61,566 nucleotides of DNA from Chloroflexota bacterium (GCA_040007395.1 JBDTVG010000179.1:1-61566), one strand, 5' to 3'; counted from the first letter of the stretch, positions 2,468 to 48,800 are shown. Made by a program: numbers and translations. Notes: generated by a model from the letters alone, not told the origin.

Positions 2468-3565
2468 ATGGCTGCTATTTCCACGACTCCCCCTAAGAAG
2501 GGTAAACCCGCTTGGGTCAAAATCATTGCTCAATATCAAAAACCAGTATTGTCGGCAAGTGTTTCGCAGCTTGCCAACAGTTTTCTGCCCTATGCTGCTG
2601 TCTGGGCTTTGGCGGCAGCAAGCGTTCTGCTCGGCTGGTCCTACTGGATCACATTGGGGCTGGCGGTGCTTGCTAGCGGTTTCCTGATGCGTATCTTCAT
2701 CATCCAGCATGACTGCGGTCATCAGTCGTTTTTTAAGTCCAAAAAGGCTAACGATCTGACCGGATTCATCTGCGGTGTTTTGACCATGACTCCCTATGAA
2801 TATTGGCGTACCAGCCACGCGATCCACCATGCGACAGCAGGCAACCTTGATCATCGTGGCGTGGGCGATGTTTACACGATGACCGTCAAGGAGTTCTTGG
2901 CAGGCACGCCGACGGATCGCTTCAAGTATCGGATGTATCGCAATCCCATCTTGATGTTCCTCCTAGCTCCCGGCTTCATGTTCATGATTAACCAGCGCAC
3001 ACCCTTAGCGCTGCCCTTCGCAACCTCCAAGCAGGGCCGCCGCAGTCTGTATTACACTGATCTGGCAATCTTTAGCCTTGCCGTTGTGCTATCACTCATC
3101 ATCGGCTTCAGAAACTACCTGATCATCCAAATTCCGATCAACATCATCGCCGCGACGGTAGGGGTATGGCTGTTCTACATCCAGCATCAGTTTGAGGAAG
3201 CCTACTGGAAGCCCGAAGACGATTGGGATTACACTACCGCTGCACTCAAGGGCAGTTCTTATTACAAACTACCGAAGGTGTTCCAGTGGTTCACCGGGAA
3301 TATCGGTCTGCACCACATCCACCACCTTAGCCCCCGCATCCCGAACTACCTGCTGGAAAAAGTCCACAACGATAACCCGGAATTCCAACAAGTCCCGATC
3401 ATTACCTTGTGGGCCAGCGCGAAAATCCTGCTTTCCCGGTTGGCGCTCTGGGACGAGGATGAGAAGCGATTGGTAAGCTTCGCTGAGGTAGATCGCCGCC
3501 AGCGGGCTGCTGCAATCGCTGACACGGCTAACCCTACGAACACAGAAACCGAGACAGCAAGCTAG
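2468..3565 (+). CDS. Membrane-bound fatty acid desaturase (acyl-lipid desaturase, three His boxes).
   Basis: His boxes HDCGH, HAIHH and HHIHH with TM segments between them. The RBS-like gaggtaac lies upstream of the ATG. Confidence 0.85.
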   Translation: MAAISTTPPKKGKPAWVKIIAQYQKPVLSASVSQLANSFLPYAAVWALAAASVLLGWSYWITLGLAVLASGFLMRIFIIQHDCGHQSFFKSKKANDLTGFICGVLTMTPYEYWRTSHAIHHATAGNLDHRGVGDVYTMTVKEFLAGTPTDRFKYRMYRNPILMFLLAPGFMFMINQRTPLALPFATSKQGRRSLYYTDLAIFSLAVVLSLIIGFRNYLIIQIPINIIAATVGVWLFYIQHQFEEAYWKPEDDWDYTTAALKGSSYYKLPKVFQWFTGNIGLHHIHHLSPRIPNYLLEKVHNDNPEFQQVPIITLWASAKILLSRLALWDEDEKRLVSFAEVDRRQRAAAIADTANPTNTETETAS

Positions 3566-3636
3566 CACCTGTCTTAAAAATTAACCTTGACATCTCACCG
3601 AAAAACGCGATAATACCCATCAGACAGAGATGTCTT

Positions 3637-3709
3637 GCCGAGGTAGCTCAGTGGTAGAGCAACGCACTGAAAATGCGTGGGTCGCCAGTTCAACTCTGGC
3701 TCTCGGCAC
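3637..3709 (+). tRNA. tRNA-Phe (anticodon GAA).
   Basis: Cloverleaf: acceptor GCCGAGG/TCTCGGC, D-loop AGCTCAGTGGTAGAGC, anticodon stem ACGCA/TGCGT with loop CTGAAAA, T-loop GGTTCAACTCTGG. Confidence 0.85.
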
Positions 3710-3712
3710 ACA

Positions 3713-3750
3713 AAAGCCACTCCCAAATTTGGGAGTGGCTTTTTATTTTC
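3713..3750. terminator. Bidirectional intrinsic terminator (aaagccactccc aaattt gggagtggcttt) between the tRNA-Phe/desaturase and the convergent flotillin gene.
   Basis: 12-bp perfect palindromic stem flanked by A/T runs on both sides. Confidence 0.6.
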
Positions 3751-3792
3751 TGACTAACCTTGCCTATATAAAACAGGTTTAGCGGAAGTATG

Positions 3793-5847
3793 CTAGGCAG
3801 GATTAGTATCGGGTGGGTTGACAGGCGGATCGGTATGTGTCGCAAGCTGCTGCAAAATGCTGTTGCGAATGCGCTTGACCTCATTGTCGTTCCGGCTAGC
3901 AGATTCGCTTTGTCCATTTTGATTACCGCCATTAGTGCTTGGCTTGGTCTCAATGTTTAACTTGTCAGACAGTAACATCGCAATCAAACCTTCGAAGGCG
4001 CTGTAACTACCAGTCCCATTGCCATCTGCACCTTTGCCGCCCGTGATAACCATTCGGGGGACAATCTCAACTCCCGATTTTTCGATAGCGGCACTAAAGC
4101 GTTCCATGACCTGTTGCAATACTTGATACTGCGGGCCACCGTAGGCACGAACTTGTTCTTCAACCGCCAACGCACGGGCAATACCAGTCCGGGCATCGCG
4201 TTCTGCTTCAGCCTCGGCAATAGCTTTGATTGTGGCGGCTTCTTGGAGCGAGCGCTGGTACGATGCTTTACCCTGATTGCTCTGAACCGTAATGGCAATC
4301 TCCGATTCGGTCAGGGCGGTTTGCTGCTGTGCAATCGCCTCGGCCTGACGGAGTTCGCGCTCTTTGTTGGCGGCGAGTTCCTTCTTGCTATAGGTTTCGA
4401 TCTGTTCTACCGCGATTTGGCGATCCCGCAACTGAGCAAGAATCTCTTCGATCTTGCGGTCATTGGCAGAGGAGGACGGCGTGCCGATCAACACTTCCTC
4501 TAGTTCCAGATTATAGTGAGCGAAACGCTCTTTCATTTCTATAGATGACTGGCCTTGAATCTGGCTACGTTCCTGAATTAACTGGATCAGGGTTCTAGTT
4601 TGTCCGATGTTTTTAAAATATGCAGCAACCATCGGGTCGAGAGTCTGATCCACCAGCCGTTTGATGTCACCGAAACGCTGAATAACCAGCGGCGCTTTGC
4701 GGTAGTCGATGTGGATCACGACGGACAAAGGCAGCGATGGCTCAAACGCATCTTTGGTGATCAGTTCAACTGCGGTCAGATTTTCGTCGTAGCGATGCAC
4801 TCCCACCTCGGCACTATTCCACTTGAGGATAATATTGGTCGTGGGTACGATAATGACCTTGCCTGCATAGGTGTTGAAGGCATATTTACCGGGCATGAGT
4901 GCCGTACTCCACACACCCTTAAACCCGCGTTCTACCATCTCGCCGTGTTTGTAATCTTCACCGGAAAGATCGCCGCCCTGTTCGCCTGTATAGGACACCA
5001 CTACGCCCACACTGCCGACTTCAATCGTTGTTTTGGGGATCATTTCGACAGTAGCAAACAGACAGTTGATATAGTAAGTTCCCTCGACAACTGTTTGGAA
5101 TTGGCGACCTCGCCGTCCGCCTGCCGCCAAGAACTTTTCTGGGTCTTGAAAGTTATTGTGATAGGTTGCGGGATTCTTTGGATCGTCGCCCACCGTTGGG
5201 GCGATAATATCACCTTGCGCTAGCGATGGCCCTTCATGGACTGTTACCACGCCAACCAGATCGTCAGCACCTTTGATAACCACCGGACGGAAACCTTGCC
5301 GTTCCGCAATAAGCGCAGCGGTACGCTTGAAAGTAACTTCGTCCTCGCGGCTTAAGGGAAGATAATACGTGCCTGTCTCGGTAAAAATGACAAACTGCGC
5401 TAGATTGAGCGCGTAAGTGCCTTCACGCAAGACTTCGCGCTGTGGGCCGCGCTGTCCACGATTTTTGAGAAAGCCCTCTACGTCCTGAAAATTCTTAGAT
5501 TCCGGCACATTTTGGGCGATGGTTTGTGAAGGCTGCAATGGTAGGCCATCACGGGCGAACACATAGCCGATCTGTCCCTGTGGAATAGTGACAAGGGGAG
5601 CCAGATGGACGCGAAATTGGAAGGGCATTAACAGGCGAATACCACCACGCAGTACATTAGGCTGGTAACCTGCTTCGCGGTTGAGCGCGATGAACCCTTC
5701 TTTAACCGACCCTTTCTCAGAAAAGATTTTCTCGACAATCCCTACGCGGTTGTTCGGAATAAATCGAATGGCAGAGAGCAACGCCACGAAAGCAACAACA
5801 ATCAACAACAGTACCAAGATAAGCGGAACTATCGCGAAGCCGTCCAC
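3793..5847 (-). CDS. Flotillin-like SPFH/band-7 domain protein (YqiK-like). N-terminal TM anchor and C-terminal coiled coil rich in E/A/Q.
   Basis: N-terminal hydrophobic helix, SPFH-like core, and a long EA-rich coiled coil (AEAEAERDARTG...). Confidence 0.75.
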   Translation of the reverse strand: MDGFAIVPLILVLLLIVVAFVALLSAIRFIPNNRVGIVEKIFSEKGSVKEGFIALNREAGYQPNVLRGGIRLLMPFQFRVHLAPLVTIPQGQIGYVFARDGLPLQPSQTIAQNVPESKNFQDVEGFLKNRGQRGPQREVLREGTYALNLAQFVIFTETGTYYLPLSREDEVTFKRTAALIAERQGFRPVVIKGADDLVGVVTVHEGPSLAQGDIIAPTVGDDPKNPATYHNNFQDPEKFLAAGGRRGRQFQTVVEGTYYINCLFATVEMIPKTTIEVGSVGVVVSYTGEQGGDLSGEDYKHGEMVERGFKGVWSTALMPGKYAFNTYAGKVIIVPTTNIILKWNSAEVGVHRYDENLTAVELITKDAFEPSLPLSVVIHIDYRKAPLVIQRFGDIKRLVDQTLDPMVAAYFKNIGQTRTLIQLIQERSQIQGQSSIEMKERFAHYNLELEEVLIGTPSSSANDRKIEEILAQLRDRQIAVEQIETYSKKELAANKERELRQAEAIAQQQTALTESEIAITVQSNQGKASYQRSLQEAATIKAIAEAEAERDARTGIARALAVEEQVRAYGGPQYQVLQQVMERFSAAIEKSGVEIVPRMVITGGKGADGNGTGSYSAFEGLIAMLLSDKLNIETKPSTNGGNQNGQSESASRNDNEVKRIRNSILQQLATHTDPPVNPPDTNPA

Positions 5848-12663: not shown

Positions 12664-12735
12664 ACGGGGTGTAGATCAGTGGTAGATCGCTGCGTTTGGG
12701 ACGCAGAGGCCGCCGGTTCGAGTCTGGCCACCCCG
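12664..12735 (+). tRNA. tRNA-Pro (anticodon TGG).
   Basis: Acceptor CGGGGTG/CACCCCG, anticodon stem CTGCG/CGCAG with loop TTTGGGA, T-loop GGTTCGAGTCTGG. Confidence 0.8.
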
Positions 12736-12741
12736 ACTATA

Positions 12742-12814
12742 GGCGGCTGTAATTCAGTGGTAGAATGCTTGCCTTCCAAGCAAGACGTCACGGGTTCGAA
12801 TCCCGTCAGCCGCT
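12742..12814 (+). tRNA. tRNA-Gly (anticodon TCC).
   Basis: Acceptor GCGGCTG/CAGCCGC, anticodon stem CTTGC/GCAAG with loop CTTCCAA, T-loop GGTTCGAATCCCG. Confidence 0.8.
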
Positions 12815-12820
12815 TTTAGA

Positions 12821-12896
12821 GGGCCCATAGCTCAGCGGTTAGAGCAGCCGGCTCATAACCGGTCGGTCGCAGGTTCGAATCCTGCTGGGCCCACCA
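12821..12896 (+). tRNA. tRNA with CAT anticodon (elongator Met or Ile-lysidine), with encoded CCA.
   Basis: Acceptor GGGCCCA/TGGGCCC, anticodon loop CTCATAA, T-loop GGTTCGAATCCTG, 3-prime ACCA. Confidence 0.8.
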
Positions 12897-14581
12897 AACG
12901 GGAGCCAAATCGAACCAGCAGCACTCCTGCTGGTTTGGGTTTTCTGTCCACGGGATCCATTCAATCGGGGCTGCATCACGGGAACGTTATTTGACGATAA
13001 TTCGTGCAGATAACTAAAAGGTGTCCGCAGCTCCATCCTTAAGATTTTCCCCTCTGGGCTGATTACAACCCGCTTGACCATATGTCTCAGCAAGCGTTGT
13101 TGTCCTTGCTGATCCAACTTTTCAAATAGTATACCAGCTTTCGCAATCAGATTGAGTGCGTCATCTAGCGATGCAATATGTGCTCCACAATTCTGGTCAA
13201 TGGCAAGCAATGTTGACTGAATTGCGCTACGTTGATCCTGCCAACCTTTCCAAAGTGTATCCCACACTTCCTCCGAAAGTTTCCCCTTCGTATGAAGACG
13301 AGCAGCCGCAAGCTCTTCTTCGTCAAGACTCTTCAAGGCTTTCTCCAGCATTGACCGATCCGTGCCGTCAGGCTTATTCAAATAATGATCTACATCTGCG
13401 AGATAAACTTCACGAATCCTCGGTAGTAATTCAGTGTCTATTTGAATATTTCTCAAATGTCCAGAAATCTGCTTGTCTATTTGATGGCAAAGGAAATTGT
13501 GCTTGCTGCTGGCAATACAATAATAAGCGACACCTCCTCTAACCCGGTTTGCGTTAGATGTCGAGCAAGTAAGCTTGATTGGCTGATTGCCTCCGATTTG
13601 TATATAGACCAGAGTTTGCAACAAATAAAAGTGGCGTGGTCTATGTTCACGAACTTCGTTACGCCGATCCAGAATCGCTAAACCTGTCTCAAATTCCTCG
13701 GTCGAAACGACTGGTTCCCAATCTCCACGTACTGTTTTGGGTGGTATTGTTGCCCATTTATTTTCGACGACTACCCAACCTGCATAGAACCAGTTGTGAA
13801 AAATATCTGAGAGCTTGTTAGCAGCGGGAACACGTTTGCCATTCGCCTTGACCGCTACAAATGGACGACCAGAACGCATACAGTACCCTCTCGCGTGAAG
13901 CACTTCGCAAATTTCGGCGAGGGTATGTTTGTCTTCGAGAAGAAGGTCCCACGCTTCTCGCCAGACTTTGTATTGCACTGGATCAGCGGCGATCCAGCGT
14001 TTATATTTCGCGTGTTTTAGGCGCTCCTCACGTTGGAGGCCAGCTTTTTTCTTCTCCTTATTGACGTAACCATCTGGCGCTCTCCACGACCATCCACCTT
14101 CGATAAGTTTCGTATGCATCCCTTCTCGACAACGTTCGCCGATCCGATCGGACTCGAAACGAGCCATATTGAACAGCACACCAACGATCATACGACCATC
14201 AGACTTCGCAGGATCGAGACTTGGATAAGTAGCTATTCGGAGCGTGATCCCTAGGGCCATCAATTCATCAAACGCACGTAGACCCTCAACATCATTCCTC
14301 CCAAAGCGATCAACGAACGCAATTGCTACGTGAGAAAATTTGCCAAGGCGGGCATCGGCAAGCATTTGTTGATAGTATTTGCGACCGGTTGATTTACCAG
14401 TAAACGTGTCGGCATAGCGCCCGATGTAAGGCAACCCTGAACTATCAATGAGCCGTTCGTGGTTGAGGCGACTCTGGCTTGTTTGTGAACGTTCTGGCGC
14501 TTGTGCATCCTCATCGCTGGTACGTAGGTATTCGACCCAGCCGGGTGTCAAAGTCAATTGTTGAACTTTGCGCTTACTCAT
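12839..14581 (-). CDS. Large serine recombinase (resolvase catalytic domain plus recombinase and zinc-ribbon domains). The 3-prime end is antisense to tRNA-Met.
   Basis: N-terminal YLRTSDEDAQ catalytic-serine motif and the resolvase core (AIAFVDRFGRN...GITLRIAT...MIVGVLFNMARFESDRIGER). At 580 aa it is typical of large serine integrases. Confidence 0.85.
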   Translation of the reverse strand: MSKRKVQQLTLTPGWVEYLRTSDEDAQAPERSQTSQSRLNHERLIDSSGLPYIGRYADTFTGKSTGRKYYQQMLADARLGKFSHVAIAFVDRFGRNDVEGLRAFDELMALGITLRIATYPSLDPAKSDGRMIVGVLFNMARFESDRIGERCREGMHTKLIEGGWSWRAPDGYVNKEKKKAGLQREERLKHAKYKRWIAADPVQYKVWREAWDLLLEDKHTLAEICEVLHARGYCMRSGRPFVAVKANGKRVPAANKLSDIFHNWFYAGWVVVENKWATIPPKTVRGDWEPVVSTEEFETGLAILDRRNEVREHRPRHFYLLQTLVYIQIGGNQPIKLTCSTSNANRVRGGVAYYCIASSKHNFLCHQIDKQISGHLRNIQIDTELLPRIREVYLADVDHYLNKPDGTDRSMLEKALKSLDEEELAAARLHTKGKLSEEVWDTLWKGWQDQRSAIQSTLLAIDQNCGAHIASLDDALNLIAKAGILFEKLDQQGQQRLLRHMVKRVVISPEGKILRMELRTPFSYLHELSSNNVPVMQPRLNGSRGQKTQTSRSAAGSIWLPFGGPSRIRTCDRPVMSRLL

Positions 14582-16031: not shown

Positions 16032-18770
16032 ATGACCTTCATGGACCAGTGGAGTGCAGAGCTTCCCGGCTCCCTCGCTGCCTGCCGCAAGGCGATTCAG
16101 GCGGCGGGCAAAAGCGCACAAGGTATCGATCCCAAATATGGTGTATTCGCCGCTGGACTGCTCTGGCCCGTGCGTGAGGCAGGCGCAGAAGATGACCAAC
16201 GCGAGGCCGTGCGCGAGATCTGCGGCGGCAAAGACGAGGCCAAACCGCTGCTGACTGCCATTCGCAATTGGTCGGATTATGTTGTGGCAGCGCGTGAACT
16301 TTCCGAGTCGACGAAGGGCAATCTACTGCTACAAATCGCGCTGGAAAAAGTGATCACACACTTTCAGGACGCGCTGGTTGCCGCCGAGTTCATGACCATC
16401 GACATTCGCGACAGCACCATACAGGGCGCGATTGTAAACATCGGCGGCAAGCAATATTTCTACGGCGATGTGGTGATCAATATCGTGCAAGAAGCAGTGA
16501 TGACCTGCCCACCACCCCCCGAAGACCCTGCCCAATTCGGCGGACGCGATACGGTATTGACCGATCTGTGCGATCAGCTTAAGCGTGGCGAGGTGACGGC
16601 GATCACGGCGGTGCATGGCTTGGGCGGGATCGGCAAAACGACACTGGCCCGCCGCCTCGCCAATGTGCTGCACCATGAAAAGACATTTCGGGCGGTGCTA
16701 TGGGCGAGTGTGACACGCAGCCCCGATCCGCTGAGTATTTTGCAGGTCTGGGCGAAGCACGGCAATCCTAACTATGCGCTGCCCGATGCCAAACCGGATC
16801 AGATCGCCTTGCAAGTCAAGGGATTGCTCGAAACCGCGATTGCCCAAACGTGCGAACACTGCGAACCGGATCGCGTGCTGGTGGTGCTGGATGATGTGTG
16901 GGATGACGCGGAGGGCAAAGGCAAAGCCGCCGCTCGACTGCTGCAAGCTGCCGCGCCGACTAACTCCACGATCTTGATCACGACCCGTTCGCAGAATCTG
17001 GCTATCGATCTGCACGCCAAACAGCCCTATGCGCTGGACCGCATGGCTGCCGAGGACGGGCTGGCGATGCTGCTGACCTATGACGATCTCAAAGGGCTGC
17101 CCCACGATCCCTTGAAGGCGCTGGTGATGGCGCTCGGTGGACACCCGCTGGCGCTCGATCTGGCAGTGCGGCGCGTTCAGAAGGCGGAAAATAAGGCCGA
17201 TGCGTTGACGGCGCATACTACGCTTTATCAGAAAGGATTGCTAGCAGGTGAAGGCTTCGGCGGACTGAAACTCGATCAGGGGCCAGATCGCGAAGACAAC
17301 CTGACGCTGGTGCTGTCGTACAGCTACGACGACCTGCCCGACCCCGATCAGGCGCATTTCCGGGCATTGGGGATGCTGCCGCCCGATGTGCCGTTTGACC
17401 GGACGATTCTGGCGGCGCTGTGGGAAGTCCCGCCTGAGGCAGTGATCGACTCGTGCGATACGCTGCGGCTGCTCTCGCTGCTCCAGCCCGATCCCGTTAG
17501 CGGGGAGGGTTGGTATCGCCAGCACCCGCTGCTGCGAAGCCGTGCGCTGGATCTGCTGAAAGGCGCGGCTGAGACGGACGCAGTATTCGCCCGCTACGCA
17601 GATCGGGTGATTGAGATTGCCGAGGGCTTTTATCGGCTGCCGCCGGAACAATGGGCCGAACTGTCGGCCTACCTACCGCATGTTCACGCTGTTGGCAGTG
17701 GCTTGGTCAAGGCGTTCAGCCCAGAGACACTGGATGATGCGCAATTGAGCCGCGCCCAACGCTTCGCCCTGAAGACCAGCCGCTATCTCGCCAACCGCCG
17801 CGAAGTGCACCAGATCGACTGGTTGGAGATGGGGCTAACTGCCAGCCGCCAGTTGCACGATGTGAAAAACGAATCCTATTTCTGTAACGATCTGGGTTTG
17901 GTCTACTCGGCGCTGGGGGAGAAGCGGCGGGCGCTGGACTTCTACGAGCAAGCCTTGCCGCTGTATCAGGCGGTGGGCGATCGCGGCGGGGAAGCCACCA
18001 CCCTCAACAACATTGGTTTGGTCTACTCCGCGCTGGGCGAGAAGCGGCGGGCGCTGGACTTCTACGAGCAAGCCTTGCCGCTGTATCAGGCGGTGGGCGA
18101 TCGCGGCGGGGAAGCCGTTACCTGTTTCAATATCGGCATGGTTTATCGCGCATTGGGCGATCTGGATCAGGCTATTGACTATGTAGCCCGCTGCGTTGAA
18201 CTCGATGAACAAGTCGAACACCCCGATCTGGAAAGTGATCGGCGGGCGTTGGAACAGTTGAAGCGCGAACGTGACGGTCAGCCGGAGCCGACAGTAGGCC
18301 AAACCCCAGAGGAAGTTATGAAAATGATAACTAACCTCTACCGCCAGCGTGGGCCGGACGCAGTACGCACGCTGCTCAAGCAGTCCGATGTAGCAGACGA
18401 AACTATCGAAGCGCTGCTCGCGCAGTTAGCCGCCGCTGGCACGCAGGCTGCGCCGAGTCAGCCTGTGCAGCCGCCCTCGACCCTGCCCGATGAAACGATC
18501 AATATGTTGGCAGGCAATACATTTGCCGTCAAAACCAGTGCGCCGGATAAGCTGGACAATTGGCGCACAAAATTGCAGAGTATCCGCGCCGATTTCGCTG
18601 CCAAAGGGGCCGACTGGCAGCTCGAAGTAGATTTTGTCGATGCGCTGCTGGCGGTGTTGGCGGATCAGCCCGCCGCGTTACCGGATGGCAACCCCTATCA
18701 ATCTGTTGTGCAGCAGGTGATCGCAGCCATTGAACAGTTTAGCAGTAATAGCAATCCACAAGGAGAATGA
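16032..18770 (+). CDS. STAND NTPase of the NB-ARC type with C-terminal TPR repeats and an N-terminal region of about 190 aa with no recognised fold.
   Basis: P-loop GLGGIGKTTLARRL, Walker B VLVVLDDVWD, NB-ARC-like GxP (GGHPLALDL), then repeated TPR units (LGLVYSALGEKRRALDFYEQALPLYQAVGDRGGEA). Confidence 0.85.
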   Translation: MTFMDQWSAELPGSLAACRKAIQAAGKSAQGIDPKYGVFAAGLLWPVREAGAEDDQREAVREICGGKDEAKPLLTAIRNWSDYVVAARELSESTKGNLLLQIALEKVITHFQDALVAAEFMTIDIRDSTIQGAIVNIGGKQYFYGDVVINIVQEAVMTCPPPPEDPAQFGGRDTVLTDLCDQLKRGEVTAITAVHGLGGIGKTTLARRLANVLHHEKTFRAVLWASVTRSPDPLSILQVWAKHGNPNYALPDAKPDQIALQVKGLLETAIAQTCEHCEPDRVLVVLDDVWDDAEGKGKAAARLLQAAAPTNSTILITTRSQNLAIDLHAKQPYALDRMAAEDGLAMLLTYDDLKGLPHDPLKALVMALGGHPLALDLAVRRVQKAENKADALTAHTTLYQKGLLAGEGFGGLKLDQGPDREDNLTLVLSYSYDDLPDPDQAHFRALGMLPPDVPFDRTILAALWEVPPEAVIDSCDTLRLLSLLQPDPVSGEGWYRQHPLLRSRALDLLKGAAETDAVFARYADRVIEIAEGFYRLPPEQWAELSAYLPHVHAVGSGLVKAFSPETLDDAQLSRAQRFALKTSRYLANRREVHQIDWLEMGLTASRQLHDVKNESYFCNDLGLVYSALGEKRRALDFYEQALPLYQAVGDRGGEATTLNNIGLVYSALGEKRRALDFYEQALPLYQAVGDRGGEAVTCFNIGMVYRALGDLDQAIDYVARCVELDEQVEHPDLESDRRALEQLKRERDGQPEPTVGQTPEEVMKMITNLYRQRGPDAVRTLLKQSDVADETIEALLAQLAAAGTQAAPSQPVQPPSTLPDETINMLAGNTFAVKTSAPDKLDNWRTKLQSIRADFAAKGADWQLEVDFVDALLAVLADQPAALPDGNPYQSVVQQVIAAIEQFSSNSNPQGE
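17881..18120 (+). repeat. Near-perfect tandem duplication (2 x about 120 bp) inside the STAND gene that duplicates one TPR unit.
   Basis: tggtctactc(g/c)gcgctggg(g/c)gagaagcggcgggcgctggacttctacgagcaagccttgccgctgtatcaggcggtgggcgatcgcggcggggaagcc appears twice in tandem. Confidence 0.8.
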
Positions 18771-18773
18771 ATC

Positions 18774-19193
18774 ATGTCCGACGACAAACCAACTATCAAT
18801 ATCAGTGGCAGTAACGTTCAGGGCGGGATCGTGGGAATTGGCGGGACGCAAAATTTTCAGCAAGCCGTGACCCTCACGCTCGGCAATCTCTCGTCCACCG
18901 TCGGTGCGCTGCAAGCCCCCGACCCAGACAAAGCCGAACTGCAAAAACTCATCGCTGAGCTGGAAGCCGCGCTCAAGAACGCACCCGCCGCTCATCAGGA
19001 CGATGCGAAAAAGATCGCTAAGCGTGCGAAAGAAGCCGTCGAGGAAGCTGCCGCCGATCACCCCGATAAGGATGGGGTCGAGGCGAAGGCCAATCTGCTC
19101 AAGAAGGCGGCGGAAAACGTCGCGGGCGCGATGCCGATTGTCCTGACGATTGCCACGAGTATCGTCGCGCATCTGCTCAAGTTGGGCATGTAA
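18774..19193 (+). CDS. Small protein (139 aa) with a C-terminal hydrophobic helix. Its N-terminal motif is shared with the upstream STAND protein. Candidate effector or adaptor.
   Basis: Starts 4 nt after the STAND stop. TINISGSNVQGGIVGIGGTQNFQQAV parallels STAND residues TIDIRDSTIQGAIVNIGGKQYFYGDV. The C-terminal MPIVLTIATSIVAHLLKLG looks like a TM helix. Confidence 0.5.
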   Translation: MSDDKPTINISGSNVQGGIVGIGGTQNFQQAVTLTLGNLSSTVGALQAPDPDKAELQKLIAELEAALKNAPAAHQDDAKKIAKRAKEAVEEAAADHPDKDGVEAKANLLKKAAENVAGAMPIVLTIATSIVAHLLKLGM

Positions 19194-19920
19194 GCACGCG
19201 GAGCATCGATTCTAAAATACAGATCAAATTTTGTTGGATGTGAGCGACTCGATGCAGATTTCACCGGCGCACGTCCTTTGCTTATCCGACAAGGTTGTTT
19301 TCTACGAATACTGCCGCGAATCTAACACGCCGCGCAGCCCTGTAAAGCGCAAGCGCTTCGCTGTGGATTTTTGCTTTGGCTTGTGCCGCTGCGCTCATGC
19401 AAAAATCCTTGCGCCCTGACGGGTACAAGACTGCTGAGATCGGCGTGTTGCAGGGAGGGCAGTATTGTAGAACAACCTGTCGATAAGAGGACATGCATAC
19501 GGTATCTGCACGAGCCGCAGAACGCCCGAAAGGGCACTGCCGAAGCAGGCTAACGGATTAAACGTTAGTGGATACCTGACGGTGCATGGCGCAATTGAGA
19601 CTGCATACTCACCCCGCTGCCGGAGGCGACCCTGCCTGCGGCAGTGTTGGCGTTTAGGACGGTCGTGAACTGTACAGCACACGCTGCTGTACGCCGGATC
19701 GGCCTCTGAATGGGCTTGTGCCGCAGATACAGCCACTGTATCAGCACAAGTCTTTGCACGTTCAGGCCACGCTCCAGACGAACCGGGTGAGATAGACCAA
19801 CCACGCAAGACAATCCTCTGCATCAAGCCGGACTCCCCTTTACCCGGCTGTTGCCCCCACGCGGTTGGTTGCTACTTTCAGAACATTTTGTTTTACAGCC
19901 TCTCGAAAGGAGTCTCCCCT

Positions 19921-24075: not shown

Positions 24076-24929
24076 ACACATTACTGGCGGCACAAGCCTT
24101 GCTGGGAAAGGCGTTGTTGGCAGATCCCCGATTAGCGCTGGCTCAGGCCGCCGCTTGGCTGGACCCATCAAACATCCTCACGCATCCCAGTGACAGCAGT
24201 GACGAGGCTTTTGACGAAGCTGTGAACGAGATCACCTGGGCTTTGCACCTCTGCCGGAAGTTATTTCCAGAGGTATACGCTGGGGCCTCACAGTTGGTCT
24301 GGCAAGGGGCAAATGAGCAGACAATAGATAACTTCCTCTTGGACGGCATCAATGCCCACCTCGTGATGAAACTGGACGCGCTTGAAGAAATACCAGGTGG
24401 TGTGCCGGTGGAGATGCTGGGAGTCTCGTTCTACGAAGACGACTTTTTCGAAAACTATCCCCAACTCGTCGCTATCCTCACCGATTTCGGTATCCAGCCA
24501 GATTGCACCGAGACTGATATCTGGCGGGCTGGCGAATTAGCGAACACGTTATACGCCAGCGTCGAGCGACAATCTGGCACCACTTACCATCACCTCTGCT
24601 CACTGCTCAGTTGGCTGTTTGCCAGCAGTGGCAATACCTGTTTAGATATGACGACAGAGGAGTTTTGGGAGTCAGGCATTGCCCTGTTGGAGTGGCACGC
24701 AGAAAACGTTGAGGCGATGAATGCCATGGCGACCGAAGCAATGTCTATCTTTGACGAGGCCCAAGCCGGGTTGCAGGTGCTTCAGACTGATAGCGAACTC
24801 CGTCAGGTTTTCCAGCATAACCTTCATAAATTGCTCAATGCTTCGGCTCAGTCGGGTCGAAAGAAAGGAACATCCTCCAATGACCGTACTAGGCACACTC
24901 AGCGCTTTCAATGGCCTGAACGCCCTTGA
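24072..24929 (+). CDS. Hypothetical alpha-helical protein (about 286 aa), translationally coupled to its neighbours.
   Basis: ATGA overlap with the upstream gene. No JAB, ParB or other motif recognised. Confidence 0.45.
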   Translation: MNTLLAAQALLGKALLADPRLALAQAAAWLDPSNILTHPSDSSDEAFDEAVNEITWALHLCRKLFPEVYAGASQLVWQGANEQTIDNFLLDGINAHLVMKLDALEEIPGGVPVEMLGVSFYEDDFFENYPQLVAILTDFGIQPDCTETDIWRAGELANTLYASVERQSGTTYHHLCSLLSWLFASSGNTCLDMTTEEFWESGIALLEWHAENVEAMNAMATEAMSIFDEAQAGLQVLQTDSELRQVFQHNLHKLLNASAQSGRKKGTSSNDRTRHTQRFQWPERP

Positions 24930-25617
24930 AGCGGCAGTCCAAGAACTGCCGCACCTCACCTTGAATTTCTATTCGTATGGAATCCTTATGCGCCGTCGGC
25001 TAGAAAATGGCGGTGAAACTGAATACCCCGTCAGTCCAGAGCAGCTAGCGACGGCCCTCTCTGCCAAAGTGCGTTTTGAGACAGGACTGCTGTCCAGCAA
25101 TACCCTCTATGTTGCCACGGAAGGCATCCAAAAGCTTATCGTGGACTATCGCAAACCGCAGCAGACGGCCCTCTTTTTGGATGGCTCAGAAACATCCGTC
25201 CGGGTGCCACTGCCAGGATTGGTCATGATCCGGGTCACGAGCGCCAACGATAACCCGCGCTATGGAGTCTATGCGGTCAAACGCCGTCCGACAACGCTTG
25301 ACATGCCTCTGTTCCTAGCACCACTGCCGAACATGGATAGCCATTCCGTGTGTTGGGGGTCCGTCAAAAAAGTCTCGCCGGAGGGATTAGCCAATTCCAC
25401 ACTCGATGAAGATTGGACGCTGCTCTTGGGCAGTATATTTACCAGTCACAGCGTCCATGGGAAGAGCAAGAGTCACCCCGCTGACATTCGCCAGAAACTC
25501 ATCAATGTAGAAAAAGGTGGGGCGCGTCGGTATCCCACCGGTGATCTGGTAAAACTCGACTTTACACTGTCCGATGTTATCCGGAAGGTGCAGCATGACT
25601 CAAGTACACGCTTTTAA
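24879..25617 (+). CDS. Candidate prokaryotic E2-like (UBC-fold) protein.
   Basis: SD aaggaa 8 nt before the ATG at 24879. Beta-rich core (LPGLVMIRVT...YGVYAVKRR), then LAPLPNMDSHSVCWGSVKK, which resembles the HPN-x-CL active-site loop of E2s. Lies directly upstream of, and overlapping, the E1-like gene. Confidence 0.4.
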
Positions 25618-26368
25618 CCCCGACAATACCCTGACCGAGATCGTTCTGGTGGGGTTGGGCGGGACGGGAAGCCAGTGGGCGCGGACGATCTGCCGCATCG
25701 TCTGGGATCTCCGCCGACGGCGACAGCATGTGCCAACTATCCGCTTTGTAGACCCCGACAAAGTAGAAGCTAAAAATGTAGGTCGTCAGATGTTCACGCA
25801 AGCTGATATAGGCTACTACAAAGCGGAAGTCCTCGCCCGACGTTTCAATCTGGCCATGGGCCTGAACATTATCTGGCATAATGCACCATTCGATACTGAG
25901 CAACATACGCAGGGGCATGGCACAGTATTGTGTGGAGCCGTCGATAATCATTTAGCTCGCCTTGAGTTGTCGAAAGTCAAAGGGGTCTGGATTGACAGTG
26001 GCAATGCGGCTAGCAGTGGGCAGGTCATCATTGGCTGTTCGAGCGATAAGTCAGAGGTGCTTCGCAGCATCGAGTCAGGCCGATTCAGCCGTCTGCCCAA
26101 CGCGGCATTAGTCTTTCCAGCACTGCTGGAACCAGAGCCAGAACCTGTGCCTACGCCGACCCTCGACTTATCCTGCGCCGATCTGATGGAGAGCGGTGAA
26201 CAGCGGCTTTTGGTAAATGACCTGATGGGCCATGTGGCGGGAGAATATACTTTCAAGCTCTTGAACCGCCTACCCATCTATTCGTTTCTCACGTTCGTCG
26301 ATGCCGAGGGGTTAGCAATACGGAGTGTCCCCATTACGAAGGACGACCTGCTGGCCTACCTCAACTAA
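25595..26368 (+). CDS. ThiF/MoeB/E1-like adenylyltransferase (ubiquitin-activating-enzyme superfamily).
   Basis: Rossmann VLVGLGGTGSQ, the DPDKVEAKNVGRQ (D-x-D-x-v-e-x-sNL-nRQ) motif, and LCGAVDNHLARLEL. At about 258 aa it is the size of PRTRC-type ThiF proteins. Confidence 0.8.
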   Translation: MTQVHAFNPDNTLTEIVLVGLGGTGSQWARTICRIVWDLRRRRQHVPTIRFVDPDKVEAKNVGRQMFTQADIGYYKAEVLARRFNLAMGLNIIWHNAPFDTEQHTQGHGTVLCGAVDNHLARLELSKVKGVWIDSGNAASSGQVIIGCSSDKSEVLRSIESGRFSRLPNAALVFPALLEPEPEPVPTPTLDLSCADLMESGEQRLLVNDLMGHVAGEYTFKLLNRLPIYSFLTFVDAEGLAIRSVPITKDDLLAYLN

Positions 26369-42670: not shown

Positions 42671-42824
42671 CCCCTAAACAAAGACATTTCCCATTCAAAA
42701 AAGCTTCTCTGTTATACACGGGAAAGGGCTTGAGCTATTATGTTCCTCAGGCGCTGCTAGTTCCCCTACTAGTCAAAGTTGCTTTTTCATCTAATTCTGA
42801 ACACTTACCTTGAGAAGGCTACTC

Positions 42825-45800
42825 ATGACCTATCGGTGGATCACGTCGCTGCGCCGTTCGTTGAATCTTGTCCTTATCCTCGGCCTCGGTATCAACCCAC
42901 TGACACCGATTATTCTCTTGAGAGCCTCGCTCGAAAACGGAAAATCTACTGCCAGTGTTGTCAGTCCCGAAATTGCTTCGGCGGCAGGAGCAACAGCATC
43001 AGCGATTATACCCCCCTCGATACCTGCCAAGTCGCCCGTAGCGAGTGTGTCATCTGCCACCAGCAATTCATGCGATACTAGCCTTGCTATAAAACGGGTG
43101 GGTTTTATGAACATCGGTACTAGTACCGGTTGGACTTATTCCTCTTCAATCTCTGGTAATGGGCGTTATGTCGTTTATACAACCCACAGTAGTCCTTATA
43201 ATCTCAATGAAGATGACTATGAGGATATTAGTCTTTTTGACAGACAAACATGCACAAACACCGGGATTATCTCTACTAGATATGTACCCAACAACTCATT
43301 TGCAATGGAACCTGCCATTTCAGCAGATGGGCGATATGTCGCTTTTATTTCTGGTGGTAGCGCTATAGTACCTAATGATACGAATAATGTTGCAGATGTC
43401 TTTGTCTATGATAGAGACACTCCACAAGGAGGCTCTCACTTTACACGGGCCTCAGTTAGCTCTACGGGGATACAGGCGAATGGTCCTTCTATCGGAAGTA
43501 ACTGGCCTATTTATAATCGCACACTATCAATTTCAGCCGATGGACGTTATGTAGCATTTATTTCTGATGCGAGTAATTTATCGCCAAGCGATACTAATCA
43601 AGATCCAGATGCTTTTGTGCATGATATGGTAACAGGCGAAACATCCCGTGTATCGGTACAAACGGGTGGTGGGCAAGTAGATGGTAACTCTGTGGGAATA
43701 GATGCTATTTCCATTTCTACACCGACTTACGACAATGCACAGCTTCCACAGGATGGCCCTATTGTGGCGTTCTCCTCGAATAGCACGCAACTGGTCTCAT
43801 CTGATAACAATAATTACTCTGACGTTTTTATCCACAACATGAAAACAAATATAACAAGTCGTATTTCTACAAACATAAATGGACAAGAGGCAAATAATAA
43901 TAGCGATAGTCCGTCAATTTCGGCTAACGGTGGCTATGTTGTTTTTCGCTCCGATGCCACAAATTTAGTTGATAATTCATATAATAACCAAGGGGATCTA
44001 TTCCTCTATAAAATTCCAACCGCTACCTTAGCCGCCACTATCACACTAATTACGATGGGTTATGACGGATCTCACACGGATTATGGGTCACGTTTGCCCG
44101 ATATTTCAGCCAATGGTCGGTTTATAACTTTTGCTAGCCAAGCAACCCATTTGGTTTCTGGCTATGACATCAGCGGTGCTCAGTATAATTTCTATAGATA
44201 TGACAGTAAAACAAAAACAACGACCCTATTGAATATAGCTTTTGATGGTCGCTATTTGGGTGGATTAGCACTAACAGCTTCACTTGATTTTTCGGTCACA
44301 ATTTCTGATGATGGGATCAATGCTGCATTTCCTTTTTGGAATTACCTTGGCCCACATAGACTAACCCCACCTGAGTTCCTTGATATATTTCCTCACGCTA
44401 ACCCATCTATCTTTGTGACAAGTATTTTACCGAGCAATCTCGATGCCGTCTCTGGGGATAACCTAGATAGTACCTGCTTGGACTCTAATACCGCTCATCA
44501 GGCGCAAGCCTTCGTGGGTCATTCGCCCAATATTAACCCGCTCACCGGAAATTATGCCTATTCGACCACTGATCTGACCATCCACAGTGAAGGCGATCCG
44601 ATCAGCTTCCGTCGGATCTATTCGACCCATCGGCTCGGTTACACCACTGATAACGACGATATGCTTGGCCCGGGTTGGACTCATAATTTTGATATACGCC
44701 TTCTTTTCAGTTCGCCAGATGCGGTGACTCTCCAATCCTGCAATGGTGCCCGACAGCGTTTCAACAGGGATGGAAATGGCATCTATACGCCGGAGCCAGG
44801 TCTACTGGCGAGTTTAACGGTCGCAACAGGATCGAATGGTGGTTATGTCGTCAAGCTACGTAATCAGACTACATACGTATTCAATGCTCAGGGGCAACTC
44901 ACTCAAATCACACGTGTACCCGGTCTGAAGACTGAGTGGAACGTTTTAAATTTTTCCTATTACACTAATCTCCCCGCAACTGCCTCTAGCGTTGAAAAGC
45001 GCTTGGCATGGATTAAATTTGACAATTTTCGCAACGAAAATGGCACACAACCAGAGCGCTATCTAAGATTTTGCTATTACGATAGCGGGCGGTTGAACTC
45101 GGTGATCGACACTCAGTTGCCGGACTCAACTGCGCCAGACTACTGGAACGATTGCCCAGAGACTAGCAGTACAAATATCGTTCGCGCAAAAGTGAAATTT
45201 ATTTACTCAAATGGTTATGATAATAGCCTTGGCAATTTAATCGCTGCGCGTGATGTTCGTGGACAGGTATGGGACTATATCTATGGACAAACTATTGCAG
45301 ATAAGCCATATCTGACCAAAGTACTCAGCCCATTAGATTACCCCGAAGGTGCAGACCAACCGTGGATAGAGAAACAAGAATATAACTCTGATGACGGGCG
45401 GCTTCTAAGACAATTCAACGGCAATAACAATTTAACTGTCGAATTGTCGCCTCAATCTAATAGTAAACTTCGCATTGATGTTAAGGATGGTCGGGCTAAC
45501 ACACAAACTTATTTCTACAATACGCTGAACAGCTTCGCGGGTATCGAATACCCATTTAAACCCGTAGGAGCGACCGCAACTACCACAATACAAACTGAAA
45601 CACGCTACGACGAAAATTATCGACCAGTGTATCGTAAAGATGGCAACGACAATGTCACCCGGTTAGAGTGGAGTGCCAACGGGCACAACCTGAAATCGAT
45701 TACGGACGCACTGAATCAGACTACGAGCTACGAATACGATACTGCTACTAACAACCTGCTAAAGATTTCCAATCTTGCAGGGAAGAGAAGGACCACTGAG

Positions 45801-48800
45801 TATCGTTATGGAAAAGATTGCGATGATAATCTAGTCAGTAATTCTTTCCCGATGTTCGTTACGGCAATCAAAGAGTCTTCGCTGTCTTCGTCAGATGGGA
45901 CCATACCGACCTGTACTCGCTTTGTCCCGACAGCTTCTGGAAATTTGGGCGAGGTTATCGATACCCAGAACAAAAAGACGGTATATGCGTATCATCGCGA
46001 CGATGCCTATAAGCGCAGTGTTACGGTTGTTAAGAATTACGATGGTGAGACAACCACCTCAGATAAAAATGTTATCACGACCTATTTGTATGACGAACAG
46101 TGGAATTCGCAGTTGGCATTTATCTCAAATGACCGCGATACCCCCATGCCACCGACCCCTACGCCACAACCCGCGGTCCGCCAGTTAACTGCTAGCGACC
46201 CCTCCCAGTGCTCATGGAAAGACAATACACATCGAGGACGGTTGGTTACCGTAGTAGATCCGGCTGGTCATTGGAACCTCACTGGGTACGATGGAGCCGA
46301 TCATCTTATTGTCATTGACAAGAATAGAAGACCTCAATCTCTTAATGATCGGGAGCCGGAACGACCTGGCAATGCTATTATCACGTGCCAGCAGTACGAT
46401 GCCGCTGGACGACTAGAAATTATGTACGAAACATTATCGAGACTCACTAATAATTCGGACTTACTAAACATTTTTAACCGACCTGTGCCAAATGGTATGG
46501 ATCTAGATAAACGCTATACACACTTTAGATATGACGACGCTAACCAGTTGACCCGAGTTATTCGCAATGCGTTTCCCAGCGGTACTGACCCATTAGATCT
46601 CTATAGTTTCAATACTCAATATCCTGATATAAACATTAGTACTGGCTATATTTACGATGAAGCAGGCAATGTAACTAGCTCCTTTAATGCAGGTGGTTTG
46701 CCTGAACGTGTTGACCAAACTTGCTATGACAATTTGAACCGTCCGGTAATGCGTGTTCAAAATGCAAAGACTGGTATAAGTAGCACAGCGTGTACATTTC
46801 TAAGCACCTCATCCGCCAAGCCCGATGAAGACGTTACGACTCTGATGAGGTATGATGCAGTCGGTAATGTCATCCAAACGACGAATGTTACTAACTCAAG
46901 TAATACAGACCTCGTCACTCAATTCAAGTACGATGCCCTGAATCGCCAAACAGCGACGATTGAGAATGTGAAGCCTGTCTCTGTTACGACAGATCAAAAC
47001 GTAAAATCTTATACATTTTATAACCAGCTTGGGCAAGTTCAAAGCAAAGTGGATCCAGTGAAGCATGTCACTTGGTTATGTTATGATGGCCTCAACCGCC
47101 CCAACCGCCAAGTGGTCAATTTCAGCAACATTTCCAATCTAGGCAGTATTGATGAAAACACGCCACCTGTTCACGCTCCCGATAAAGATCCTTGTCTATC
47201 CACTTACACCGAAGATCCATCTCCAGACAAAGACCTTGTTTCTCTGACTGTCTATGATGGGCTTGGACGCGTTTTGGATACGATTGATCCACTAAAGCGT
47301 AAGACTCACCTCGACTATGATGCTCTGGATCGCCCAACGCTAAAAATTGCCAATTATCAGAATGGCGAATTTGATCCAAGCCTGCCTGATCAAGATGTGT
47401 TTGAACAAACCCAGTATGATCCTCTGGGGCGAGTCATCAGTGTCGCCACAGCATCGCCAGCTCTTACGCCTTCAACTACCGCTTTTGCACCAACATGTGT
47501 TTCTACAAGCAATACTATAGATAACCGATGTCGATACACAAAGATTTCTTATGACGACTCGCTCTTGATGGTCACGACTACTCAAAACTATAAGGATGGA
47601 AATCTAGACGCGAATAATCCTGACGAGGATATATCAACCGTCGTATGGTACGATGCAATGGGTCTGCCCAATCGACAAGATACACCTAAACGTCAGAACA
47701 GTATTCATGAGCCGATTTTATACTCTTTTTATGATGGTATGGATCATCTGCTCAAAGTCACTAACAAGTTTTGGCCCGATGGTAAAAAAACCTATGTTTA
47801 TGACGCGTTGGGTCGGCTGATCACACAAATCAATGCCCTTGAGAAGAATACTGAGATTACCTACGACGGGCTGAACCGTCAATGCTCCATTAAGGATGCA
47901 CGACAATCCCAAACCAAGCTTATCTATAACAAATTAGGCCAAGTTATCCGCCGCATTGATCCCAATGGTGTAGTCACCCGCCTAGACTATGATGGAATGG
48001 GGCATTTGAAGTATGTCTGGGAGAACTATCAAGGGTCCGATAACCCTCCTCCGTCTAATGGGTGTGAATATTTAAGTACAGATAGTGCTACCCCTACTCC
48101 AAACAACCAAGCTTTTCCAGATAGGAATGTGCGTACCGCCTACGAATACGATGAACTCGGCAATCTGACAAAAATGACCCTGCCAAATGGCAGCGTTACT
48201 AATTATACCTATGATCAGCTGAATCGGCGGCTCACGGTAGTTGGTCCGTTGGCTGGACCAAACAACACTTGGACGACTACCTATTCAAAAATATACCAAA
48301 ATGATGCTGATGCCCCCGGGATACCAGTCCTTATAACTCAAATGACAGATCCTCTTGGAAAGGTCCACAAGACTGAGTACAACGGTCTCGGTCAAGTCCT
48401 CCGCACAAACCATACCGATGCCAATCAACCTAAACTTGATACACAATTTAGCTACGATCCGGCGGGTCGGTTGTTGAAGATGACCGATTCACTGGCAGGC
48501 ACCCCAGTAGCGAATACCGACTTTAAACATGATGGCATGGATCGGCTCACTTCAGTCACGGATTCTTTCAACAAAACAGTGGGCTATCAATACAATGTTG
48601 ATGGCACCCGCAAGGAACTTGATTTACCTGATAGTCGCAAAATTAACTACGAGTATTTTGATAGTGGTCTCTTACAAAACGTTCATACCACTGGAATCGG
48701 TTGGAATACCCAAACCCAGGCAACATATGACTATGATGTCGCCGGGAACGTGAAAACAATGGTGCTCGGCAATGGGGTCCGGGCGACCTATGATTATTAT

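Follow-up and report, generated by a model that had tools for sequence, protein, structure and literature searches.

A short beta-rich motif shared by an NB-ARC/TPR STAND protein and an adjacent small helical protein suggests a two-gene NLR-type system on a Chloroflexota mobile element

Does the 912-residue NB-ARC/TPR STAND NTPase encoded on a Chloroflexota contig act through the 139-residue protein whose gene follows directly behind it, and what would connect the two? We analysed the complete 61,566-bp contig of a Chloroflexota metagenome-assembled genome that carries both genes (GCA_040007395.1, JBDTVG010000179.1; hereafter the window). An original prediction, made from the sequence alone, had proposed that the N terminus of the small protein mirrors a segment of the STAND protein in the manner of effector-associated adaptor domains, and both open reading frames (ORFs) are present as it described them. 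We read the pair as a two-gene system of the NOD-like receptor (NLR) type, probably serving abortive-infection defence, in which oligomers of the sensor would trigger a membrane-damaging effector through the shared motif, and we give this reading a probability of roughly 0.6. The NLR is most likely the sensor and switch, and the 139-residue protein its separately encoded executioner. The features of the pair are listed below, with the basis of the assignment in brackets.

16032-18770, plus strand: STAND/NLR gene, 912 aa (ORF call; Pfam NB-ARC and TPR)
16032-16391, plus strand: conserved, helical N-domain of the NLR, residues 1-120 (alignments of relatives)
16395-16484, plus strand: sensor-side beta-rich motif, residues 122-151, TIDIRDSTIQGAIVNIGGKQYFYGDVVINI (HMM, hhalign, shuffles)
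16554-17156, plus strand: NB-ARC NTPase domain, residues 175-375, including K202 of the P-loop and D287/D288 of Walker B (PF00931)
17874-18236, plus strand: TPR repeats, residues ~615-735 (Pfam TPR_12, E=2.9e-29)
18339-18767, plus strand: C-terminal NLR domain, residues ~770-912 (conserved in related loci)
18760-18765, plus strand: Shine-Dalgarno sequence AAGGAG inside the end of the NLR gene, 8 nt before the ATG of the small gene (sequence reading)
18774-19193, plus strand: small protein gene, 139 aa (ORF call)
18792-18881, plus strand: effector-side copy of the motif, residues 7-36, TINISGSNVQGGIVGIGGTQNFQQAVTLTL (profile tests, shuffles)
18921-19190, plus strand: helical bundle of the small protein, helices at residues 50-68, 72-92, 99-115 and 121-138
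19119-19184, plus strand: hydrophobic, tail-anchor-like last segment of the small protein, residues 116-137

Residues 122-151 of the STAND protein align with residues 7-36 of the small protein without a gap and with 14 of 30 positions identical. A hidden Markov model (HMM) built from the N termini of 15 homologous small proteins, with the window's own excluded, matched the window's STAND protein at exactly residues 122-151 (E=4.4e-7 among the 2280 six-frame ORFs of the window) and nothing else among those ORFs; the same HMM also matched the NLRs of another locus at the equivalent position. The mirroring that the original prediction had noted in the sequence is thus borne out at the profile level, and the profile-profile comparison of the STAND side with the small-protein side using hhalign was likewise significant, with a probability of 96.9% and an E-value of 1.8e-10 over 41 columns. 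The Smith-Waterman score of the motif pair (68) was matched by 2-3 of 2000 shuffles that preserved local composition. Compared as DNA, the copies agree at 54 of 90 positions, and because only 13 of 30 third codon positions are identical, the comparison indicates a similarity that is maintained at the protein level and does not stem from recent gene conversion. A composition-adjusted BLASTP search of the motif pair returned E=28. It falls short of significance because the composition of the motif is biased: I (17.5%), G (16.9%), T (11.2%), N (10.6%), V (10.2%), S (8.6%) and Q (6.9%) make up 82% of its residues, while P (0.6%), K (1.6%) and L (1.8%) are scarce. Composition and length agree with those of amyloid signalling motifs (~25-40 aa), and the BASS motifs abound in G/N/Q/V/I and contain little P/K/L (Dyrka et al., 2020, bioRxiv 10.1101/2020.01.06.895854). 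Register and position of the motif are conserved, immediately before a CPxxP..HFGGR linker.

The two copies vary together from one related locus to another. In L001, the sensor motif INVTNSPINTEIGGINNIITIEGGVTIT stands opposite the effector motif INLTNSPVQAGIGGVGSNITISGDVSVT, and in L019 NAPISGGNVIIGSKQ stands opposite NAPVQGANVIIGSEQ; for these two loci, the cognate motifs align with a Smith-Waterman score of 82, and no non-cognate combination exceeds 48. The pairs of the window, L011 and L004 form one motif type and are mutually indistinguishable. More distant relatives carry a second class of motif, class B, with the consensus GDTFNMSGNFQGAILNIKSTLTNVTQSIG. In the class-B pair of L025, the NB-ARC protein has NYDLSGDFREGIVNVGSRLENVTQNV, placed directly before the CPxPP..HFGGR linker common to class A, and the effector has TYNFSGHFTGSILNVNSILKNVTQTI. 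In L024 the effector is paired with a DUF4062-iSTAND protein that belongs to a MoxR-vWA ternary system and has an N-terminal motif, and this class-B pair reads MATSDEYNLTGQFPDSTINIKSTI in the iSTAND protein and MGDKFDMSGDFQGAIINIKSTL in the effector, the iSTAND N terminus having DEYNLTGQFPDSTINIKSTI against DKFDMSGDFQGAIINIKSTL. The sensor motif starts from about residue 13 in the L001 NLR, at residue 5 in L024 and at about residue 45 in L025. Judged by these sequences, the motif class switches in both partners together. A motif carried by NTPases (NB-ARC, NACHT and iSTAND) and by adjacent effectors, with adjacent copies the most alike, is the operational definition of an effector-associated domain (EAD; Kaur et al., 2020, PMC7159879), and the same pattern defines an NLR-paired amyloid signalling motif (Dyrka et al., 2020).

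Were the similarity a by-product of G/N/I/V-rich low complexity or of shared ancestry, with no interaction between the copies, a biased composition and the pairwise E-value of 28 would be what one finds. This explanation is nevertheless very improbable, being largely refuted by the significant profile and profile-profile scores, by shuffles that rarely reach the observed score, by the diverged third codon positions, by the conserved register before the linker, and by variants that are pair-specific and classes that switch in both partners. Homotypic coupling of the sensor and the small protein through the motif is, in our estimate, very probable.

Linkage of the two genes is close in the window and conserved beyond it. 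Three nucleotides separate them (TGA at 18768-18770, ATC, then ATG at 18774), and because of this spacing and of the Shine-Dalgarno sequence within the end of the NLR gene, the genes are almost certainly co-transcribed and their translation may be coupled. Rfam and terminator scans found no terminator-like site and no relevant Rfam match around the pair, including the 693 bp 3' of the small gene (19194-19887), a segment without a convincing plus-strand ORF. Conserved association with STAND genes, on which the original prediction depended, was found in 12 of 14 distinct loci, where the small gene lies beside a STAND NTPase gene, in either order and with NB-ARC or NACHT partners, or is fused to it in frame. 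The NLR precedes the small gene in the window, L001-L003, L014, L020 and L021, as it does in L012, where insertion sequence elements have left only 67 aa of the NLR, a C-terminal remnant, before the small gene; the small gene precedes the NLR in L011 (with two tandem NLRs) and L019. In L004, the gene of a 2080-aa NACHT protein with N-domain and motif is followed first by a DUF2610 gene and next by the small gene, and in L023 the NLR gene overlaps by 4 nt the gene of a TIR-motif-DUF4404 protein, inside a BREX island (PglZ/BrxL). Two proteins, P0027 (confirmed on a 757-kb contig, L022) and P0100, join a complete NLR and the small protein in one reading frame. The two loci without STAND linkage are L018, a contig of 1.8 kb, and the lineage of P0015. 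Profile scans yielded 2 loci in GTDB genome contigs and 7 in JGI metagenome contigs, using back-translated patterns that are narrow, and a tblastn search against plasmids returned no match. Taken together, motif similarity, conserved linkage and pair-specific co-variation support the adaptor reading that had been proposed. As side observations, the DUF2610 gene (142 aa) between the NACHT sensor and the small gene of L004 (7424-7852) also occurs in L005 and L013, and L004 has a serine recombinase gene immediately downstream, as the window has a serine recombinase.

The NTPase of the sensor is intact. NB-ARC was detected at residues 175-375 (PF00931, E=1.3e-15, 57.8 bits against a cut-off of 23.5), and its canonical motifs are intact (GLGGIGKTT at 196-204, VLVVLDDVWD at 282-291, ILITTRS at 314-320 and GGHPLAL at 369-375); a P-loop, a Walker B motif, an RNBS-B-like TTR motif and a GxP motif together with the Pfam match place the protein among the NB-ARC STAND NTPases. 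The P-loop, the Walker B motif and the C-terminal TPR had all been named in the original prediction and were located, with support from Pfam. It had further described the N-terminal 190 residues as having no recognisable effector domain: residues 1-170 indeed have no Pfam match, but this region is not featureless, consisting of a helical domain of 120 aa followed by the motif.

This N-domain has the signature MxFxDxW...LWP[VI]RE...LL..I..W...EL...AL..V..F and is common to the window, L011 (two copies), L019, L023, P0027, P0100 and the 2080-aa NACHT protein of L004 (33% identity), so that it occurs both in NB-ARC NLRs and in a NACHT protein. The L001 and L025 NLRs lack it and have only a short leader before the motif (about a dozen residues and about 45 residues, respectively). 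Because the pairing persists in loci that lack it, the N-domain is not required for coupling as such; it may cap the motif, act as a second effector or serve as an adaptor. In L001 and L025, nothing but the motif precedes the NB-ARC domain of the NLR, and the small protein is therefore the sole candidate effector there. AlphaFold2 (AF2) modelled the N-domain as six helices at low confidence (predicted local distance difference test, pLDDT, 58.6) and the sensor motif as three short strands, also at low confidence; a Foldseek search of the low-confidence N-domain model against the PDB gave nothing informative. When the NLR N-terminal region was used in word-indexed homologue searches, both by itself and as a profile, two close fragments only were returned, and the window protein itself was missed.

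Towards the C terminus, the TPR region contains a tandem duplication (17886-18125) of two 120-nt units that are 90% identical and encode near-identical TPR repeats (GEKRRALDFYEQALPLYQAVGDRGGEA twice), and in the fusion protein P0027 the TPR units number more than 10 and are nearly identical. These units look like repeat expansion or contraction as in the hypervariable sensor domains of NLRs. The C-terminal NLR domain that follows (~140 aa) has the pattern …NTxAVKTxxPDxLxxWRxxLQ…WQxEVxFVxALLAxLxDQxxxLPxxNPY… and lies directly before the small gene, or its fused counterpart, in the window, L001, L012 (the remnant), L014, L020, L021, P0027 and P0100. The fusion proteins carry it in 3-4 tandem copies, L001 (7639-7998) encodes it as an ORF of its own, of 119 aa, and its sole Pfam match is a weak one to DUF7691 (E=0.005).

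Three parts make up the small protein: the motif, a DUF4404-like bundle of four helices, and a C-terminal helix that is hydrophobic. NCBI names it a 'DUF4404 family protein'; its Pfam match to DUF4404 (PF14357) is marginal, at 27.6 bits against a cut-off of 27, and spans residues 35-98, thereby taking in at most the last two residues of the motif and not the hydrophobic helix. The hydrophobic C terminus was correctly anticipated by the original prediction: residues 116-134 have a Kyte-Doolittle mean over 19 residues (KD19) of 1.86, and the C-terminal segment is predicted to be helical (pLDDT ~85) and, in the model, to pack into the four-helix bundle. Residues 7-23, within the motif, are disordered or of low pLDDT in the AF2 monomer. 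A hydrophobic helix hidden in a helical bundle is the resting-state design of HeLo/Bell proteins, Bax and alpha-pore-forming toxins, and the resemblance of the small protein to these would be one of design, by analogy, and not of homology; no specific solved structural homologue of the small protein was found. Sixteen close homologues share 46-72% identity with it, those with a taxon name being Chloroflexota (Anaerolineae, Ardenticatenaceae) and the rest metagenome sequences; JGI names two close homologues ElaB/YqjD/DUF883-like. No publication using the name DUF4404 was found in the literature searched for that term, and term searches of PMC7159879 and PMC8195603 gave no match to a tail-anchored effector like the small protein.

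To assess the wider family, we performed an exhaustive HMMER search with a family profile against 1.84 billion representatives (clusters at 50% identity), resulting in 964 clusters with the module of motif, DUF4404 and hydrophobic helix at E<=1e-3 and 488 at E<=1e-10. The module is C-terminal in 145 of the 145 listed matches examined, two of which carry a tail of 26 or 57 residues after it. Among these listed matches, a beta-rich G/N/S/I/V motif of class A or B stands directly before the module, except in P0050, which is an N-terminally truncated match, and in P0049, which has a second module copy in place of the motif. P0049 (541 aa), the only duplicated case seen, consists of pentapeptide-like repeats followed by two tandem DUF4404 and hydrophobic-helix modules. 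The stand-alone form, in which motif, bundle and hydrophobic helix come without an enzyme, is the commonest in the window's subfamily. Among the 92 matches longer than 170 aa, DUF4404 was detected in 37 (E<=1e-3), and the module is reused with immune domains, being fused to EAD7 (13), caspase (5), CHAT (4), TIR (4), bDLD1 (2), COR-B (2) and NLRs (2), with EAD8 also present; EAD7, EAD8 and bDLD1 occur in these relatives as additional N-terminal domains only.

We slightly favour the view that the small protein is a membrane executioner. The membrane disruption proposed in the original prediction is plausible, given the predicted packing of the helix in the bundle and the existence of NLRs with no other effector. 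The small protein could instead be a membrane anchor or regulator that tethers or holds the NLR (or a TIR, caspase or CHAT protein), with killing done by another component. Such a role would suit the in-frame fusions, each of which amounts to a permanently tail-anchored NLR, the TIR, caspase and CHAT enzymes that the module also follows and that are possibly the real effectors, the names ElaB/YqjD/DUF883-like, which denote tail-anchored proteins, and the N-domain, which has no assigned function and is a candidate killer. We consider it unlikely all the same: the NLRs of L001 and L025 keep the pairing without the N-domain or any other effector, the enzyme-free stand-alone form predominates in the window's subfamily, no Pfam DUF883 match was obtained, and the modelled helix is packed in the bundle, as in switchable membrane-inserting proteins and not as in constitutive anchors. 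Under the preferred reading of the small protein as executioner, we infer the following course of events. At rest, the effector would be a compact four-helix bundle with its C-terminal hydrophobic helix packed in and its N-terminal motif unstructured. Recognition of a ligand by the TPR and C-terminal region of the sensor, together with nucleotide exchange, would oligomerise the NB-ARC domain, and oligomerisation would gather several sensor motifs into an ordered beta assembly. This assembly would recruit and template the motifs of the effector, via amyloid-like stacking or beta-strand addition, and the resulting clustering or refolding would free or insert the hydrophobic helix, whereupon the membrane would be damaged and growth would stop or the cell die. 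The assembly may be either a cross-beta amyloid or a simpler beta-strand-addition complex; amyloid-type templating by the motif is a possibility that we rate somewhat below even odds.

Short matching motifs couple sensors to effectors in the NLR immunity of fungi, of animals (RHIM) and of some bacteria, and the bacterial cases have so far been defined around Bell-domain effectors. The window shares with the BASS/Bell systems (Dyrka et al., 2020) the pairing of an NB-ARC/TPR or NACHT NLR with a small helical protein (120-140 aa) that has a membrane-targeting helix, the collinear and near-touching or overlapping genes (a 3-nt spacer in the window, a 4-nt overlap in L023), a motif of ~25-30 aa that is rich in G/N/Q/V/I, poor in P/K/L, of beta propensity and matched within the pair, and hosts in phyla of multicellular type including Chloroflexota. 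In BASS/Bell systems, however, the motif lies at the extreme N terminus of the NLR and at the C terminus of the effector, whereas in the window it lies at residues 122-151 of the NLR and at residues 7-36, N-terminally, in the effector. The Bell effector is a helical bundle of ~100 aa with an N-terminal hydrophobic helix; the window effector, which gave no structural match to a Bell domain, has its helix at the opposite end. The closest experimentally tested analogue is Bab/Agp of E. coli, for which amyloid-signalling anti-phage abortive infection through the BASS11 motif (Bab 86-108, Agp 2-25) was shown (Ibarlosa et al., 2024, bioRxiv 10.1101/2024.11.07.622273). There too, the genes are adjacent and lie on a mobile element, and a short motif links a TPR sensor to a small helical membrane-targeting executioner. 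The sensor differs, Agp (TPR-GreA/B-C-PIN) not being a STAND NTPase, and so does the effector, since Bab is Bell-related and has its hydrophobic helix at the N terminus and its motif at the C terminus, the reverse of the window protein. A relationship of the window motif to BASS11 is possible because the partner domains reported for BASS11 (TIR, CHAT and EAD7, as well as NACHT and NB-ARC) also occur here. Fungal HET-S/NWD2 and NLR-HeLo systems likewise combine an NLR, a separate pore-forming helical protein, a templating motif and a membrane helix hidden in the inactive state, but they belong to another kingdom, have no sequence relationship to the window proteins and show the opposite order of effector domains.

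With EAD1-11 and bDLD (Kaur, Burroughs, Iyer and Aravind; PMC7159879, PMC8195603), the window motif has in common a copy on the core NTPase and a copy on the effector of an adjacent gene. Those are small globular, mostly helical domains, while the window motif is a beta-rich peptide of ~30 aa, and neither window protein has a Pfam match to EAD1-11 or bDLD. The original prediction had called the STAND protein Avs-like, which holds for the architecture (a STAND NTPase with C-terminal TPR-type repeats, on a mobile element) and not for the family: in PADLOC, no system model matched the window proteins, which hit generic TPR models only and no Avs model. No fused N-terminal effector was recognised either, the window effector being separate and coupled by the motif, and we rejected Avs membership. 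The small protein resembles DUF4404 and ElaB/YqjD/DUF883 proteins in that a hydrophobic helix at the C terminus comes after a helical region; membership in ElaB/DUF883 was rejected, there being no DUF883 match at E<=0.01 and no NCBIfam match. EACC1 is a latent membrane pore-former with a single central transmembrane helix and alpha+beta extensions that is proteolytically activated (Kaur et al., 2020; Evans et al., 2025, bioRxiv 10.1101/2025.11.14.688446). Like the window effector, it is a small membrane effector without enzymatic activity, and its partners are Avs or caspase sensors in similar bacteria, including Ktedonobacter; membership was rejected, with no Pfam EACC1 match, no protease gene beside the window pair and another architecture.

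The window system is thus a motif-coupled NLR-effector system that stands outside the BASS/Bell, HET-S/NWD2 and EAD families in the strict sense, following the same genetic logic with another effector family and a reversed topology. This effector family is previously undescribed and its topology mirrors that of the known ones; its function and an amyloid mechanism we infer from sequence. In a wider reading, which we hold only tentatively and think somewhat doubtful, motif, DUF4404-like bundle and hydrophobic helix would define a large undescribed class of latent membrane executioners (~1000 clusters) with amyloid-like activation, the motif serving as a swappable address label to NB-ARC, NACHT and iSTAND-MoxR-vWA partners, for executioners that stand alone as well as for those with TIR, caspase or CHAT domains. 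If so, amyloid-type immune signalling in prokaryotes would extend well beyond the Bell systems, and DUF4404 would acquire a function. DUF4404 gains a testable function, the class A and class B motifs offer natural specificity pairs, and the fusions offer natural 'Rosetta-stone' cases; the N-domain and the effector lineages without a sensor bear on how such motifs stay silent.

Several observations weigh against the reading of the pair as a motif-templated, membrane-damaging system. AF2 gave low confidence to both motif copies and drew residues 22-37 of the small protein as a helix. Membership of the motif in BASS1-10 was rejected: with HMMs made from only part of the published nr70 set, namely its validation sample of one sixth (PMC8086366, supplementary file 2), no match went above ~10 bits, and the reverse search gave E=0.02 at best. 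The topology of the effector is the reverse of Bell/HeLo, and the sensor motif is mostly internal, behind a domain of 120 aa. Across the family, the C terminus is only moderately hydrophobic (median KD19 1.66, with 61% reaching at least 1.6). The natural fusions of NLR and small protein would tether the two permanently, which fits the role of a membrane anchor equally well. The PADLOC matches to candidate systems were limited to weak ones to the C-terminal part of the candidate PDC-M14B. Finally, the P0015 lineage, well flanked and present in at least 24 contigs (L007-L010, L015-L017), has no adjacent STAND gene. Its small gene is flanked by a ParE-like toxin gene on one side and a PLD-SNF2 helicase gene on the other, with MmeI-type restriction-modification and tyrosine integrase genes next to them, and its motif is N-terminally shortened, without the first strand (MPDNIIGGNVNIGGTQDFHG…); no second motif copy was found among the P0015 neighbours.

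The left edge of the element that carries the pair is marked by the following features.

12821-12896, plus strand: tRNA-Met (ARAGORN)
12839-14581, minus strand: large serine recombinase gene, its 3' end overlapping tRNA-Met (Pfam Resolvase and Recombinase; PHROG integrase, E=2e-47)

In order, a tRNA-Pro/Gly/Met cluster (12665-12896) is followed by the serine recombinase, a repressor-like gene and the NLR pair, and then by DprA/SLOG-like, NERD-like, and Prok-E2_D and ThiF genes, a giant DUF6094-SNF2 gene, a primase-like gene and the gene of a type IV secretion system (T4SS) coupling protein. The G+C content rises from ~0.47 to 0.56-0.62 at the pair. An integrative and possibly conjugative element thus carries the pair as cargo, which lies just inside its left edge at tRNA-Met. 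A prophage origin is not supported, given the T4SS coupling protein, no capsid, terminase or other phage structural genes being seen in the element; no att direct repeat of tRNA-Met was found in the window. Other relatives lie in BREX (L023) and restriction-modification (L007, with ParE) islands, and the setting is, circumstantially, typical of defence cargo. Because the L022 fusion locus has the same Prok-E2_D and ThiF neighbours as the window, the system seems to travel with one family of mobile elements; these E2/E1-like genes lie at 24721-26368 in the window and at 2611-4085 near the L022 fusion.

Coupling through the motif could also be real and serve another end, namely addiction to or exclusion by the element, kin discrimination or developmental cell death, with an endogenous or conjugation-related signal being sensed. 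The T4SS coupling protein, E1/E2-like genes and SNF2-methyltransferase of an element in which no phage structural genes were found would fit this, as would the shared E2/E1 neighbours of L022 and the enrichment of such systems in multicellular bacteria (Kaur et al., 2020; Dyrka et al., 2020). We regard it as quite improbable, since relatives lie in defence islands (BREX in L023, restriction-modification and ParE in L007), the partner domains TIR, caspase, CHAT and the EADs belong to counter-invader systems, and Bab/Agp is anti-phage; a role in defence is the one we retain.

The remaining observations concern the rest of the element and the contig. The genes assigned to the element were noted within 12665-41947, and they include the gene of the DUF6094 methyltransferase-SNF2 protein of 1490 aa, a DUF488-N3a gene and the coupling protein, of the TraG/VirD4 type. 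A match to the Rfam family Plastid-ycf2 antisense to tRNA-Met (12821-12894, minus strand) scored 51 bits, below the gathering score of 65.7, and is almost certainly an artefact of the tRNA-like structure. Further downstream, at 42810-53936, an ORF of 3708 aa with RHS repeats, PD40/beta-propeller repeats, DUF6531 and DUF6443 looks like a polymorphic toxin. It contains Thr/Pro-rich repeats with a 12-nt period at 48954-49306, and a segment of 300 nt at 52671-52970 recurs with 90% identity at 54445-54744, just downstream of this ORF.

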